Of a DNA stretch of 64,000 nt, positions 4,476 through 14,414 are shown in pieces; within the stretch, counting starts at the first letter, position 1, and the number at the start of each line of letters is the position of its first letter. The DNA is from Candidatus Aenigmatarchaeota archaeon (GTDB taxonomy: Archaea; Aenigmatarchaeota; Aenigmatarchaeia; QMZP01; QMZT01), in NCBI GenBank assembly GCA_026397315.1, contig JAPLVC010000006.1, positions 95,975 to 159,974 on the forward strand. The letters are read 5' to 3'. Made by a program: the position numbers and the translations under genes. The notes under the pieces are model-generated. The model was not told the origin of the DNA and ran no database searches. It worked only from the letters and a program-made list of their open reading frames with translations.

Positions 4476-5561
4476 ATGGTTAAGATAAAACAGCTTCCGG
4501 AGGACTTTGTTGTCCGCGAAATTTTCGAGAAGCAGCCGCACAGGGAAGGATGGAAGACGGAAGACGAAGCATATATATGGTGCGACCTGACCAAGCGCAA
4601 TTACGACCTTTTCCGCGCGCTAAAGTTTCTGTCGCGCAGGCTCGGCGTCTCGCCGAAGCGCTTCGGCTACGCAGGCACCAAGGACAAGCGCGCTGTCACG
4701 ACGCAAAAGATATCGGTCTGGAACGTGCCCCTCGAGCGGCTTCAGGCGGTTCGCCTTAAGGATATAGAGCTTTCAAACTTCGAAGAGGCGAGAGAACGCA
4801 TTACTCTCGGCGATCTTAAAGCGAATGAGTTCGAGATAACGGTGAGAGACATCGAAGAGCGCGAAAAGAAAGCGATTGAACACAATCTGGAAAAAATAAA
4901 TAAAAAAGGTTTCATCAATCTCTTCGGCGAGCAGAGATTCGGCAACCGGAATAATACTCATCTGGTCGGCAGGGAAATACTGCGCGGCAACCTGAAGGAA
5001 GCGGTCTGGATGTATCTCGCTGGCGAGGGTGATAATGACGAGGAAATAAATGCATTCAGAAAGCAACTGCGCGAGAGCGGCGACGTGAAAGAGGCGCTCA
5101 AGAACTGTCCGCGCGTCCTGCGCAACGAACTCATCATGCTGAACCACCTCGTGCACGAGCCGAGCGATTATGCTGGCGCGCTGAGGCGGCTTCCGAAAAA
5201 GATGCGCACGATGCTAGTTCATGCATACCAGTCATACCTGTGGAACGAGATGGCTAGGGCGTGCGACGAAGCGACGATTCCTCTTGTAGGGATTGACACG
5301 AATTTTTCCAAATACACGACTGCCAGAAAAATGCGGGAAATAATGGATAACGAAGGCGTCAAAAGCGCCGATTTCAAGATAGATTCGATGCCCGAGCTTT
5401 CTTGTGAGGGCGCGGAACGAGAGCGCATCGCCGTGGCTGAAAAAATGCAGTGGAATTTCGCCAGCGATGAGCTGAACGCCGGAAAAATAAAATGTATCCT
5501 GCGCTTCGCGATACCGAAGGGCTCGTATGCCACCGTCCTGATCGATGAGGTGTTCGCATGA
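4476..5561 (+). CDS. truD: tRNA pseudouridine synthase TruD family
   Basis: GTKDKRA catalytic motif and TruD fold-length; TATA-like TTATATAA ~25 nt upstream, leaderless. Confidence 0.85.
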   Translation: MVKIKQLPEDFVVREIFEKQPHREGWKTEDEAYIWCDLTKRNYDLFRALKFLSRRLGVSPKRFGYAGTKDKRAVTTQKISVWNVPLERLQAVRLKDIELSNFEEARERITLGDLKANEFEITVRDIEEREKKAIEHNLEKINKKGFINLFGEQRFGNRNNTHLVGREILRGNLKEAVWMYLAGEGDNDEEINAFRKQLRESGDVKEALKNCPRVLRNELIMLNHLVHEPSDYAGALRRLPKKMRTMLVHAYQSYLWNEMARACDEATIPLVGIDTNFSKYTTARKMREIMDNEGVKSADFKIDSMPELSCEGAERERIAVAEKMQWNFASDELNAGKIKCILRFAIPKGSYATVLIDEVFA

Positions 5562-6259
5562 AAGAGAATTTCATTTCAGTTATAGTCCCGACGTATAATG
5601 AGAGAGAGAATATAGCGGTTCTCATCCCGCGCATTTTCTCGTCTCTCGAAAATAACGCCATGCGCGGCGAAGTTATCGTGGTAGACGACAATTCGCCTGA
5701 CGGGACGGCTGAAGCTGCGGAGAAGCTGGGCGGCGAATATTCTGTCAGGGTCCTGCGCAGGCCACGCAAAGAAGGGCTTTCGTCCGCAGTCATAGCCGGT
5801 ATAGCGAAAGCGGATGGCGATGTGATAGGCGTGATAGACGCCGACCTCTCGCACCCGCCGGAGGAGATACCAACACTCGCTAGGCCTGTGCTGGAAAAGA
5901 AGGCAGACATTACAGTGGCCAGCCGCTACGTGCGCGGCGGCGGCATAGAAAATTGGCCAGTGAGCAGGAGAATCATATCGAGAGGCGCTGGTTTGCTGGC
6001 AAAGCCCATCGCTAACCTGAAAGACCCGCTTTCAGGATTTTTCTTTTTTCGCAGAAGCGTTATTGAAGGCAAGGAGCTGAATCCGACCGGCTACAAAATA
6101 GGCCTTGAAGTGATAGTGAAGAGCGGTAGCAAGAGAGTGGCTGAGATTCCATACATCTTCCACGACAGGAAGATCGGCAGCAGCAAACTCGGCATGAAAC
6201 AGAACCTCGAATATCTGGTGCATCTGGTCAGATTATATTGGCATAAGGCAAGACAGTGA
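5558..6259 (+). CDS. GT2 polyprenol/dolichol-phosphate glycosyltransferase (Dpm1-like)
   Basis: VIVPTYNE...VVDDNSPDGT...DADLSHPP DXD-type GT2-A motifs; ATGA start/stop overlap with truD. Confidence 0.8.
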   Translation: MKENFISVIVPTYNERENIAVLIPRIFSSLENNAMRGEVIVVDDNSPDGTAEAAEKLGGEYSVRVLRRPRKEGLSSAVIAGIAKADGDVIGVIDADLSHPPEEIPTLARPVLEKKADITVASRYVRGGGIENWPVSRRIISRGAGLLAKPIANLKDPLSGFFFFRRSVIEGKELNPTGYKIGLEVIVKSGSKRVAEIPYIFHDRKIGSSKLGMKQNLEYLVHLVRLYWHKARQ

Positions 6260-6260
6260 C

Positions 6261-12032: not shown

Positions 12033-12047
12033 GGAAGGGGCAAATGC
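12033..12047. terminator. inverted repeat GGGGCAAATGCCCC flanked by T-runs between convergent GT39 and S-layer genes
   Basis: Perfect 6-bp stem; on minus strand followed by TTCCCTTTTCTTTTATTTTTTCT downstream of S-layer stop. Confidence 0.35.
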
Positions 12048-12071
12048 CCCAATTAATTTACGTCGGTTAAA

Positions 12072-14414
12072 TTACGCTGCGCCTTTGTACTGAGCGACTG
12101 CGCCAAGCGCCTTGAACTCGGTCGGCTTAATAGCTTTGTTGGCTATCAAGTTTCTCGTGTCCTGAGCACTCGTGCCAGCGACGATCAGTGCTTTCTTGCC
12201 GGAACCGAAGATGTTCTCAACAACCTGGATCAGACCCTTTCCGTTGTCTTTAAGGTCAGCGTCTGCAAGCCAAGCTGCACAAGAGTCTGTCGAGCTCCAC
12301 GCAGTGTCAAGCAAAGTCTTCACAAGCGCGTTCGCGCATGGACCACCCACAAGGATAAGATCCTTGTCGAGAGCGGCTGTCTGCGTTACCTCGCTCGGGA
12401 ACTTCGCTATCGGGTTCGTTACAGGGACTGCCGCATTGTATGTTCCGCCTGCAGCTCCTGCGCTTGTTGATAGCACTGGATTCGTTCCGATGGCTATGTT
12501 TGCCGGTGCAGGTCTCTGATATGGGGCGTACAAGGAAACGCTGTTCTTGCCGTTGTTGTCTCCAGATACATAGACATAGCTGCCGTAATTGCTTATGCTT
12601 TTCCACTCGTTAGCAGTTCCAACCTGCGTCGGGTCTGGCGTAACGGTGAATTTTACACCGGAAGTTGTGCTGTGTGTCGCGTTAACCCAGAACTTCGTTG
12701 CTGTCGGGTCGTTGCCGCCTGTCAGCGAGTACAACGGTACTTCGTCTATGTACGCTGCGCCTACGTGCGTCAGGTCTATCTTCGCGCCGCCCTCGGTCGT
12801 TATGTTCACCTGTGCAAGGTTGTATGTCGAACCACCGTCAAGGCTTACACAAAGCGTCTTGTCGCCGTATATCTGGACGTCGAAGCTCGTGGAGCCTATC
12901 ATAAGGTCCTCTGAGCTCGGGTATACCTTGTAGTTTTGGTTTGACGAAAGGTCCGTTAAGGTCACGTACGTTTTTGACGAATCCGAGTTGTCGTAGCTGT
13001 AAGAGGCGTATTTCAGTATGTATGAGTAATCGCCGCTCGAAGCTACGAAGTAGTCGCCCTTCGTTATGTTGTTGGCCGTAACTGCGCCTGTGGTGTTGCA
13101 CTCCTGTGTCCAGAACTTGTATGCGCTGTTGACATATTTGGACATCAGTCCAGATGCGCCGTAGAACACTGGTATGTTCGTGTACTGCATGCCGTCCTGG
13201 TTCTTGAACGACAACTTGACATTCGAAGAGTCCGAAAGTAACTTTATCAGGTCTCTTGAACTGTCCGTTATGCTAGGTGTCATTCCGCCAAGCACTGTCT
13301 TGAACGAACCGAAGACTGGATCCACAAACGGCACTCCTTCCGCCACAGCCACGTCGTCGTCCGGGTAGACTTGGAATGTTATCGAGTTTATCTTGGTCGT
13401 GGTGTTCGTGAAGTACACATATGTGTTCTTCGTCACGTCGTTCTTCTCTATCGCTGCGCCGTTTTCCAACTTCAGCTTGTCTGTTCCGACGAAAAGTTTT
13501 ACCATACCTGTCGAATCTGTTCCGCCAGTTTGTATCACGTCAATAGACTGCACGTAGAATTTGACGCCACCTACCGTGTAAGTGCCTGCCTCGTTCCACG
13601 TGTATGAGACACCGTTGACTACTATGTATGCCTTGTCTACTGTTCCAGCGTACCAGCCGTTCAGTTTTATGGTGAACGATGTTCCGCCGACGTCGACAGT
13701 TTTCTCGTCGCCTGCTCCGCTAAGGTCAAGAACCTGCGCTCCTACCGAAGAGTACATCTCAAGCGTGTTGATGTCGTGTGTGTTGCCGAACGTGTAGTCC
13801 TTGCCGAACAGCTTCATGCCGTATGTCGTGTCTACTGCCGACGGGTCAAGACCACCGATGAACGTCACTGTCAGGTTGTACGGGGTTGTCGACATTGATA
13901 TCGGCATGTACAGAATCGGGTCTGTTTCTCCGCTTGGGACGCCGAATGTCGCGTATACCGCTGTGTTAGGCACTATCTTCTGCGTTACTGTCGAAGTCGT
14001 CGAGTTCGAGTCAGTGAACGTGCTCTTTACCAAAAGGTCCGGAAGGTCCGTCTCTGTTATGACACTCTTGGCGGCGCTAAGGTTGCCCGGTGCACCAAGG
14101 TATGTTTTCTTAAGATCGCTGTCTATCAGCACACCACCAGTCACGCCTGTCGCTGCGCCTGTTGAAGGTATTTGCTTAATTTCGATGGCATAGTTCGAGA
14201 CCAAGCTCGCTGCTATGTCCGCTGCACCAAGAACGTCAGTCGTGTCCACGCCAGCTCCGACCACTATGACCGGAGATGTAAGTGTACCGCCGCTCACGGT
14301 TACGAACTCGCCCATGCCTTTATCGAAAGTTGTCGCTGCCAATGCTCCTCCTGCTATTATTGTAGCTCCTATTACTGCAGTTATTCCTCCTGCAATCAAT
14401 CTCTTTATTTTCAT
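12072..14414 (-). CDS. S-layer protein (Methanococcus-type archaeal S-layer N/C-terminal box family)
   Basis: Sec signal peptide MKIKRLIAGGITAVIGATIIAGGALA; N-box VVGAGVDTTDVLGAADIAASL and C-box LILVGGPCANALV match conserved termini of archaeal S-layer proteins; T/S/G-rich beta-rich 780 aa; several N-x-S/T sequons; strong AGGAGGAA SD. Confidence 0.7.
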   Translation of the reverse strand: MKIKRLIAGGITAVIGATIIAGGALAATTFDKGMGEFVTVSGGTLTSPVIVVGAGVDTTDVLGAADIAASLVSNYAIEIKQIPSTGAATGVTGGVLIDSDLKKTYLGAPGNLSAAKSVITETDLPDLLVKSTFTDSNSTTSTVTQKIVPNTAVYATFGVPSGETDPILYMPISMSTTPYNLTVTFIGGLDPSAVDTTYGMKLFGKDYTFGNTHDINTLEMYSSVGAQVLDLSGAGDEKTVDVGGTSFTIKLNGWYAGTVDKAYIVVNGVSYTWNEAGTYTVGGVKFYVQSIDVIQTGGTDSTGMVKLFVGTDKLKLENGAAIEKNDVTKNTYVYFTNTTTKINSITFQVYPDDDVAVAEGVPFVDPVFGSFKTVLGGMTPSITDSSRDLIKLLSDSSNVKLSFKNQDGMQYTNIPVFYGASGLMSKYVNSAYKFWTQECNTTGAVTANNITKGDYFVASSGDYSYILKYASYSYDNSDSSKTYVTLTDLSSNQNYKVYPSSEDLMIGSTSFDVQIYGDKTLCVSLDGGSTYNLAQVNITTEGGAKIDLTHVGAAYIDEVPLYSLTGGNDPTATKFWVNATHSTTSGVKFTVTPDPTQVGTANEWKSISNYGSYVYVSGDNNGKNSVSLYAPYQRPAPANIAIGTNPVLSTSAGAAGGTYNAAVPVTNPIAKFPSEVTQTAALDKDLILVGGPCANALVKTLLDTAWSSTDSCAAWLADADLKDNGKGLIQVVENIFGSGKKALIVAGTSAQDTRNLIANKAIKPTEFKALGAVAQYKGAA

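Follow-up and report, generated by a model that had tools for sequence, protein, structure and literature searches.

The 64,000-nucleotide stretch analysed here (contig JAPLVC010000006.1, positions 95,975 to 159,974; "the window" below) comes from a Candidatus Aenigmatarchaeota archaeon and carries, next to an S-layer protein gene, five genes for glycosyltransferases. Three of them, encoding two family 2 glycosyltransferases (GT2a and GT2b) and a membrane glycosyltransferase of the GT-C class, form a conserved unit, GT2a-GT2b-GT-C (7764-11830), that is found across DPANN phyla. The two genes upstream (5558-7739), encoding a homologue of dolichyl phosphate mannose (Dol-P-Man) synthase (DPMS) and a rare second GT-C, are an accessory pair joined to this cassette. 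Our literature searches did not return any description of the cassette. The reading that we favour, and to which we give slightly less than an even chance, is that the locus combines synthase-type assembly of a glycan with outer-face glycosylation by dolichyl phosphate (Dol-P) hexose and GT-C enzymes, the glycan made by GT2a and GT2b being the acceptor.

The five open reading frames (ORFs) are consecutive and on the same strand, as an earlier reading of the letters alone (the sequence-only reading) had it, with spacers of 1, 24, 7 and 49 nt. The start of gene 1 overlaps the stop of TruD by 4 nt, and the GC content is unremarkable across the block. We computed an intergenic distance of 241 nt between the end of gene 5 and the convergent S-layer gene, in agreement with the 240 nt or so given before.

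The ORFs found in 80 genome loci, and in 12 further ones (designated by L numbers below), were scanned with hidden Markov models (HMMs) made from the proteins of the locus. In Aenigmatarchaeota, a GT2a orthologue was found at most 1.3 kb from the GT-C in 32 of the 33 informative loci; the presence of the DPMS or GtrA components and of the 492-aa GT-C encoded by gene 2 varies among them. The closest species representative (L010, a Ca. Aenigmatarchaeota metagenome-assembled genome) has a GT-C 92 % identical to that of the window. The same-strand order GT2a-GT2b-GT-C recurs in Woesearchaeota-type DPANN (L090, L091, L097, L099 and L101), and GT2a and GT2b are adjacent in all nine informative loci outside Aenigmatarchaeota. 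Identities to these other DPANN are 42-50 % for the GT2s and 23-28 % for the GT-C. At L097 all five window components are present in another layout: a second GT-C and a small GT2 of the DPM1/GtrB kind lie divergent to GT2a-GT2b-GT-C. This small GT2 matches the P. furiosus Dol-P-Man synthase (PfDPMS) at 4e-19. Outside Aenigmatarchaeota, GT2a-GT2b often has beside it a small DUF4190 protein of 77-114 aa with two transmembrane segments (L090 7664-7900, L091 10639-10983, L092 7677-7910, and also L094, L095, L097-L099 and L101). The cassette is kept by small-genome, host-attached archaea. Since it persists in reduced genomes, with GT2s 42-50 % identical between phyla, its product probably matters as a component of the surface with which the cell meets its host.

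GT2a (gene 3, 7764-9014, plus strand, 416 aa) and GT2b (gene 4, 9022-10407, plus strand, 461 aa) each matched the Pfam model Glyco_tranf_2_3 at about 1.7e-30, and the two matched Glyco_transf_21 (GT21) at 7.9e-17 and 2.5e-13; for GT2a, Glyco_trans_2_3 and Chitin_synth_2 were found as well. The best NCBIfam model was PgaC/IcaA for GT2a (1.8e-42, 145.7 bits against an equivalog cut-off of 422) and CelA for GT2b (3.8e-46, 157.4 bits against an equivalog cut-off of 699), so that neither reached an equivalog-level match to a characterised synthase. The motif sets are DDGS81, DSD128, SED218 and QRIRW256 in GT2a, and DSD169, FICGS234, TED259 and QQMRW297 in GT2b, FICGS being of the BcsA type. Each protein has one predicted N-terminal transmembrane segment and about three C-terminal ones, and the C-terminal membrane region of GT2a is rich in aromatic and in invariant residues. 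Among solved structures, GT2a was matched best by 6YV7 (9e-23), which we take to be a crenarchaeal mannosyltransferase assigned to N-glycan synthesis, and then by BcsA (1e-17). GT2b has no PilZ domain; it matched BcsA (5EJ1/4HG6) at 8e-28, its DSD, FICGS, TED and QQMRW falling on the motifs of BcsA. A search with GT2a gave 1188 homologues at E<=1e-10, at 43-48 % identity in Woesearchaeota and Nanoarchaeota, and GT2b is 47-50 % identical to the Woesearchaeota neighbour of GT2a. In a metagenome scan with the GT2a alignment, at least about nine true orthologues stood amid generic GT2s among the matches listed. We class GT2a as a predicted membrane-embedded synthase-type GT2 of the PgaC/IcaA/NodC kind, and GT2b as a predicted BcsA-like one. 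The pair had been described from sequence as two processive QxxRW synthases: the complete D, DxD, (S/T)ED and QxxRW motifs and the flanking transmembrane segments agree with this, the equivalog scores do not go so far, and processivity itself is presumed.

The third member of the cassette, gene 5 (10457-11830, plus strand, 457 aa), carries a WWDE motif in its first outer loop, and the sequence-only reading had taken it for a GT-C of the protein O-mannosyltransferase (PMT, GT39) kind. It matched PMT_2 (PF13231) at 2.8e-15 (57.3 bits, cut-off 26.1) and, with a lower score, Glyco_transf_22 (GT22, PF03901) at 8.5e-11 (42.1 bits, cut-off 23.8). These were its only Pfam matches at E<=10: the PMT family (PF02366), MIR and PMT_4TMC were not found, and the NCBIfam models gave no match. 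In the gene 5 family, PMT_2 was matched by 44 of 44 members, GT22 by 36 of 44 and PF02366, weakly, by 23 of 44. W31, W32, D33, E34, Y37, R61 and R300 are invariant in the 44 homologues, and E298 nearly so. Single-sequence searches of the PDB with either GT-C of the locus gave nothing useful, and the solved relatives of gene 5 were found with the family profile: ArnT (8e-13), ALG12 (3e-6), ALG9 (7e-5) and AglB (0.013), with no PMT chain in that search. Where the profile match to ArnT begins, D33-E34 is aligned to that enzyme's DE pair; a second motif, HKEPRY, is aligned to K-l-P-g-Y of ArnT and to HKE-x-RF of ALG9/ALG12 (phkElRF and phkEeRF in ALG12 and ALG9). The acidic loop-1 motif being common to ArnT-type enzymes, it is not specific to PMTs.

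The AlphaFold2 model of gene 5 (predicted local distance difference test, pLDDT, 95) has a GT-C class A fold, in which nothing is soluble but an alpha/beta domain of about 100 aa at the C-terminus. Foldseek ranked STT3 (6e-10), ArnT (TM-scores 0.71/0.61), ALG12 (0.64/0.62), AglB, ALG9, PglB and the Aft enzymes ahead of Pmt4 (1e-4) and Pmt1 (7e-4, 256 columns), which came behind more than 20 other GT-C chains. The closest solved relatives, ArnT, ALG12/ALG9 and STT3, all work on substrates linked to a lipid or transfer glycans that are so linked. A GT22 assignment would have for it the HKEPRY motif, which resembles HKE-x-RF, and the PF03901 score above cut-off, at a low identity of 11-14 % in structural alignments. 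From sequence and model together, gene 5 is a GT-C class A enzyme of the PMT_2/ArnT/ALG9-like group, PMT_2 being a catch-all family, and lies outside GT39. The WWDE motif and the clan and fold of the earlier description stand. The PMT family does not, and we rejected it for the lack of MIR, PF02366 and PMT_4TMC, the lack of a PMT by profile and the low rank of PMT folds. With ArnT as the best profile match, the O-mannosylation proposal also falls to the refuting condition that came with it. This corrects a probable annotation error, as such GT-Cs bear the Pfam name "Dol-P-Man protein mannosyltransferase" yet are not PMTs.

Upstream of the cassette, gene 1 (5558-6259, plus strand, 233 aa) probably supplies the donor. 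It matched Pfam Glycos_transf_2 at 8e-35, and PfDPMS (5MLZ) at 1.4e-64 over chain residues 25-247, which comprise the catalytic domain and the interface helices; ArnC (2e-17) and GtrB (2.6e-10) matched as well. The defining motifs of PfDPMS, which bind metal, donor and the phosphate of Dol-P, are DADxQHPP, SRY, R131, S135 and K178 (PMC12992685). Aligned to these, gene 1 has DADLSHPP, with S in place of Q, then SRY, R-R-I-I-S and K-I, so that the metal- and phosphate-binding residues are kept and the Dpm1-like Dol-P-hexose synthase that had been proposed here was borne out. PfDPMS, a type-III enzyme, has in addition a C-terminal GtrA-like transmembrane domain of four helices with N248, N277 and F338 (PMC12992685). 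Gene 1 does not have this type-III domain: no transmembrane segment was predicted in the protein, and an HMM scan of the whole window found no GtrA domain. The DPMS copies of the window, L010 and L021 are all without it. The orthologues at L002 (4702-5799) and L012 (5451-6614) have a GtrA_DPMS_TM domain, which is N-terminal in them and C-terminal in PfDPMS, and a stand-alone GtrA gene lies within the cluster at L008. Because the L002 and L012 orthologues carry the domain, we conclude that the window lineage has lost it. PfDPMS stripped of its transmembrane domain stays catalytically active, and that domain may flip Dol-P-Man (PMC12992685). With its motifs kept, and given the activity of the truncated PfDPMS, gene 1 is probably an active synthase, with flipping not encoded at the locus; we regard it as a Dol-P-hexose synthase homologue whose product is probably Dol-P-Man.

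Gene 2 (6261-7739, plus strand, 492 aa) is more divergent. It had no match in Pfam (even at E<=10), in NCBIfam or, by sequence, in the PDB, and the profile of its family had none in the PDB either. Its AlphaFold2 model has a GT-C fold, for which Foldseek returned STT3 chains at the top (1e-7, TM-scores 0.54-0.59, for a model with a pLDDT of 78 only), followed by AftA, ALG12, PglB, DPY19 and ArnT. An hhalign comparison with the gene 5 family gave a probability of 98.9 % (E 1.7e-17, 385 columns) and aligned D53 of gene 2 to D33 of gene 5; PMT_2 was matched weakly by 3 of 12 gene 2 homologues. The protein had been called a short STT3-like GT-C, which holds at the level of fold and clan and fails at that of the family. 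Neither WWD nor WWDYG is present in its sequence or in the conserved columns of its family, PF02516 is unmatched, and its profile groups with the PMT_2-type family; a genuine AglB, at L009, does carry WWDYG. Without this motif gene 2 is not a short oligosaccharyltransferase, and that identity was dropped. Its family is rare (29 cluster representatives at E<=1e-30 among 1.84 billion), and the closest relative, L010, is without it, the DPMS gene there abutting GT2a. We class gene 2 as a rare, divergent paralogue of the PMT_2-type GT-C, and as an accessory, variable gene.

Taken together, a Dol-P-hexose synthase homologue beside two GT-Cs is the standard arrangement for outer-face glycosylation with a lipid-phosphate sugar. 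In the scheme that we favour, a beta-linked or lipid-anchored glycan would be made from nucleotide sugars on the cytoplasmic side by GT2a and GT2b, and would probably be threaded through their aromatic-rich transmembrane bundles. The DPMS homologue would put a hexose, most likely mannose, on dolichyl phosphate. Dol-P-hexose would then be flipped by a flippase encoded outside the locus, orthologues having a GtrA domain or a nearby GtrA gene. Both GT-Cs would spend it on the outer face, passing the hexose to the GT2-made glycan or to some other glycan linked to lipid or protein; the predicted catalytic residue, within the first outer loop, is Asp33, and in the paralogue Asp53. The constant partnership with the GT2s across DPANN is what makes us favour the glycan made by GT2a and GT2b as the acceptor.

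Several observations weigh against this scheme. We know of no family member with a known polymer, lipid or protein product. The QxxRW motif set is also found in non-processive and short-chain enzymes, models of the GT21 ceramide glucosyltransferase match both GT2s, and the best PDB match of GT2a, 6YV7, is a non-classical mannosyltransferase. With about four predicted transmembrane segments per GT2, against 8 in BcsA, a self-contained channel is uncertain. Related GT-Cs of other DPANN lie in AglB clusters, pointing to N-glycan work. No flippase is encoded in the window, and the DPMS homologue is without a membrane domain. Finally, most Aenigmatarchaeota loci have a thioredoxin-like protein of about 221 aa in place of GT2b (for instance, on the minus strand, L003 8035-8715, L005 8057-8725, L007 8038-8703 and L008 7980-8645). 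It has an N-terminal transmembrane segment, a conserved CxxC-D-Q, two more conserved cysteines and weak Thioredoxin and TraF matches, and sits between GT2a and the flank, adjoining the GT-C; in the window, tblastn found nothing better than E 0.05 for it. With such a CxxC protein, a substrate that is itself a protein is easier to reconcile than a polysaccharide. Thioredoxin-like proteins of this sort recall Ost3/Ost6, the oligosaccharyltransferase subunits that help eukaryotic protein glycosylation. The thioredoxin-like neighbour and the related clade linked to AglB make a role in protein glycosylation possible. At L014 (9860-14105), where GT2a, the 492-aa GT-C and a thioredoxin-like gene are all present, three PMT_2-type GT-C paralogues stand beside them in tandem, which shows that GT-Cs have expanded locally at this site.

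The S-layer neighbour (12072-14414, minus strand, 780 aa) could be where the product ends up. It matched S_layer_C (PF05124) at 1.3e-18 (67.7 bits, cut-off 23.9) and TIGR01564 at 3.5e-11 (42.4 bits, cut-off 25), is of the Methanococcales/Thermococcales type, and has an N-terminal hydrophobic Sec signal peptide, beyond which no transmembrane anchor was predicted. A preprint states that the S-layer protein has not been determined in any archaeon of the DPANN group (bioRxiv 10.1101/2023.10.27.564410). An S-layer HMM, built from four Aenigmatarchaeota sequences and liable to miss divergent S-layers, matched within 5 kb downstream of the GT-C in 12 of the 23 informative Aenigmatarchaeota loci (the window, L002, L003, L005, L007, L010, L012, L016, L022, L035, L036 and L065); at L048 the match was 8.6 kb off, and in 11 loci with at least 3 kb of downstream sequence there was none. 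The same HMM gave no match near the cassette in the loci outside Aenigmatarchaeota. Seven positive loci share the full synteny from TruD to the S-layer gene, the A24 peptidase and EF-2 (elongation factor 2) and so are not independent; at L007, L022, L035 and L065 the adjacency is kept with different flanks. In four of these 11 loci, L008, L014, L017 and L024, the GT-C is followed by a large ORF, 751-779 codons long from stop to stop, with small membrane proteins beside it. The L008 gene at this position encodes 739 aa annotated as PF00437 (T2SSE, a pilus/archaellum-type ATPase), and the ORFs of the other three agree with it in position and size. The cassette therefore tends to sit among cell-surface assembly genes.

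The S-layer protein itself has 8 N-x-S/T sequons where 8.4 are expected from composition, 4 cysteines, and short Ser/Thr runs with no long tract. Sequon counts were near expectation in all ten orthologues (the window copy and nine others), and enrichment in sequons or in Ser/Thr was rejected for all of them; one sequon, N440, is shared by the six orthologues that are closer. The proposal that the island is a lipid-linked O- or N-glycosylation route for the S-layer therefore stands in part. The DPMS homologue, the GT-Cs and the adjacency, some of it with rearranged flanks, speak for it; the failed PMT identity and the absence of enrichment speak against it, and the tight partners of the GT-C are the GT2s rather than the S-layer gene. 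We consider it plausible that the S-layer protein is a binding partner or the final carrier of the glycan, and the link is circumstantial, consisting in the order of genes in roughly half of a single phylum.

The most serious competitor, unlikely in our view, is an N-glycan route of the AglD/AglS or ALG9 kind. Here the GT-Cs would add a terminal hexose to a flipped lipid-linked oligosaccharide or to an Asn-linked glycan, the GT2s would act non-processively on a dolichol-linked intermediate, and AglB would be encoded elsewhere. The above-threshold GT22 score of gene 5 and of most of its family, ALG12 and ALG9 among its closest solved relatives, 6YV7 as the best match of GT2a, the S-layer adjacency in 12 of 23 loci and the kept N440 sequon all fit it. 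In Woesearchaeota, Pacearchaeota and Nanoarchaeia, an AglB/STT3 with WWDYG was found at most 10 kb from a related GT-C in 20 loci. A neighbour-joining tree of the GT-Cs gave three groups, with the AglB-linked one next to the Aenigmatarchaeota clade; the deep order of that tree being unreliable, we do not claim orthology of the Aenigmatarchaeota GT-C to either Woesearchaeota group. Experimental precedent exists in Haloferax AglD, AglR and AglS (PMC3871713). A protein of 883 aa encoded elsewhere in the window (61329-63980, minus strand), with weak Cadherin, Big_9 and PKD matches, has 56 sequons (6.3 per 100 aa) and is a candidate heavily N-glycosylated surface adhesin; from this sequon content, N-glycosylation is likely active in the source organism. 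Against the route, no AglB/STT3 was found among the larger window ORFs scanned with Pfam or within 10 kb in any Aenigmatarchaeota locus, and the Woesearchaeota cassette stands apart from the AglB clusters. The S-layer sequons are at composition level in all ten orthologues, and both GT2s have complete synthase motifs, with the acceptor-glycan motif FICGS among them.

A glycolipid or lipoglycan product is improbable by comparison. In this case GT21-like GT2s would put one or two sugars on archaeol, glycerol dialkyl glycerol tetraether or another lipid, and the GT-Cs would extend them outside, like PimE and the PIG mannosyltransferases; a lipoglycan of this kind could hold the S-layer, which has no anchor of its own, on the membrane. 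The Glyco_transf_21 matches of both GT2s, the lipid-linked acceptors or donors of relatives in the GT-C fold (ArnT, ALG9/12, PimE and the Aft enzymes), the S-layer protein without a predicted anchor and the retention of the cassette in reduced DPANN genomes, whose membrane lipids are thought to be scavenged, would agree with it. The BcsA-type FICGS motif, and PgaC and CelA as the best NCBIfam models, favour instead a glycan acceptor for the GT2s, and we know of no characterised archaeal glycolipid synthase of this family. Equally improbable, in our estimate, is a bolder version of the favoured scheme, in which the cassette makes an undescribed archaeal envelope polymer or lipoglycan, with the twin synthases building it and the Dol-P-hexose GT-C finishing it, that in Aenigmatarchaeota anchors the S-layer or is covalently joined to it. 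Were this so, the GT-C or the thioredoxin-like neighbour would be the first known archaeal machinery linking a non-AglB glycan to an S-layer protein, and the GT-C possibly a missing archaeal O-glycosyltransferase.

Least probable of all is the sequence-only reading's own proposal, that the 457-aa GT-C is a PMT moving mannose from Dol-P-Man directly to Ser/Thr of the S-layer protein: the PMT_2 match, a WWDE that resembles the loop-1 DE motif of PMTs, the weak PF02366 matches of 23 of 44 family members, the DPMS gene at the locus, the S-layer adjacency that survives rearranged flanks at L007, L022, L035 and L065, and the membrane-anchored thioredoxin-like protein beside the GT-C in most relatives are outweighed by a family profile that led to ArnT (8e-13) and to no PMT chain, by the lack of any PMT, MIR or PMT_4TMC match to the protein at E<=10, by PMT structures ranking below STT3, ArnT, ALG and Aft enzymes with about 256 columns aligned, by a length of 457 aa that leaves no space for a loop-5 MIR domain, by an S-layer protein without a Ser/Thr-rich tract, and by the cassettes of other DPANN and of 11 Aenigmatarchaeota loci, beside which the S-layer HMM had no match.

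The locus was also compared with characterised systems. In Haloferax volcanii, AglD, AglR and AglS form a route by which Dol-P-Man provides the final mannose of the N-glycan on the S-layer (PMC3871713; PMC4973528). A cytoplasmic Dol-P-hexose synthase, flipping, a multi-spanning outer-face Dol-P-Man transferase and an archaeal S-layer glycoprotein target are common ground, AglS being likened by description only; unlike it, the window has synthase-type GT2 partners, no AglB or agl cluster nearby and no flippase. Bacterial three-component systems use a polyprenyl phosphate sugar synthase, a flippase and a GT-C to decorate glycans on the outer face (PMC11127046). GtrA/GtrB/GtrC, CsbB/GtcA/YfhO and ArnC/ArnEF/ArnT resemble the locus in pairing a GT2 of the DPM1/GtrB/ArnC class with a GT-C, ArnT being the nearest solved GT-C by sequence, and the second GT-C of the window varies between close relatives like a serotype-converting module. 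Of this set the window has the synthase and the GT-C, and GtrA was found only in relatives, as a domain at L002 and L012 and as a gene at L008. The differences are a dolichol instead of an undecaprenol carrier, the missing GtrA, and an acceptor that cannot be lipid A, lipoteichoic acid or O-antigen.

With PgaCD/IcaAD, BcsA, hyaluronan synthase and NodC, the GT2s share D, DxD, (S/T)ED, QxxRW, an N-terminal transmembrane segment and a C-terminal transmembrane bundle, and the DUF4190 protein beside GT2a in other DPANN is reminiscent of IcaD and PgaD, the small partners of poly-N-acetylglucosamine synthases. They differ from these systems in score (146 against 422 and 157 against 699 bits) and in the absence of PilZ, BcsB, PgaB and a deacetylase. 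To our knowledge no described synthase system has a tandem synthase-like pair followed by a GT-C. DPM1 with ALG9, ALG12 or PIG-B is similar in the GT22 match, the likeness of HKEPRY to HKE-x-RF, the profile and fold matches and a DPMS reduced to its catalytic domain, as in human DPM1; the identity of 11-14 % in structural alignments sets it apart, and a partner like DPM2/DPM3 was not identified. GT39 enzymes (Pmt1/2/4, POMT and mycobacterial Pmt) have in common with gene 5 the GT-C fold, the loop-1 D-E pair and a Dol-P-Man or polyprenyl-P-Man donor, and differ in the MIR domain, PF02366 and PMT_4TMC that gene 5 is missing; their structures match it less well than ArnT, ALG and STT3.

A parallel to the order of events that we propose is in mycobacteria, where processive GT2s build the galactan and GT-C arabinosyltransferases then extend it outside the membrane. 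As in the assembly of arabinogalactan and lipoarabinomannan (GlfT2, Aft/Emb, decaprenyl-P-arabinose), a GT2-made polymer would be extended outside by GT-Cs fed with a polyprenyl-P-sugar, and AftA, AftB, AftD and EmbB are among the fold matches of the window GT-Cs. The window GT2s, unlike the mycobacterial ones, are of the membrane-embedded synthase type, the sugars and the carrier differ, and there is no relationship at sequence level. The locus yields candidate genes for a synthase-made archaeal glycan, for the outer-face use of Dol-P-hexose and for a possible connection between a glycan and the S-layer.

Beyond the S-layer gene lies an A24-family prepilin/preflagellin peptidase of the PibD/FlaK kind (14648-15490, minus strand, 280 aa, about 8 transmembrane segments), with GDGD in its translation. 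It scored above the Peptidase_A24 cut-off (2.4e-7, 31.6 bits, cut-off 26.5), as expected from the earlier call of a PibD at this place, and far under that of FlaK_Arch in NCBIfam (2.4e-6). The peptidase gene is also downstream of the S-layer gene in L002, L003, L005, L010, L012 and L016, is followed in the window by EF-2 and ribosomal protein genes, and is syntenic context outside the glycosylation unit. A 30-aa ORF between the GT-C and the S-layer gene (11893-11985, plus strand, MMSKQCPKCHALHPSWCNKCMWCGIDLEKR) has two CxxC pairs in a zinc-ribbon-like arrangement; it is conserved in no other locus and was dropped as a component.

Two further regions of the window deserve a mention. A protein of 1122 aa with 45 cysteines and a weak Peptidase_C25 match (48957-52325, plus strand) is flanked by four ORFs of 268-603 aa without Pfam matches (45759-48921, minus strand; 52335-54632, plus strand), and the products of this group of genes may be secreted or located at the surface. 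An ORF of 247 aa with a weak LAGLIDADG_3 match (42775-43518, plus strand), which lies where the GC content is low (0.42 in 42-44 kb), may be the remnant of a homing endonuclease.

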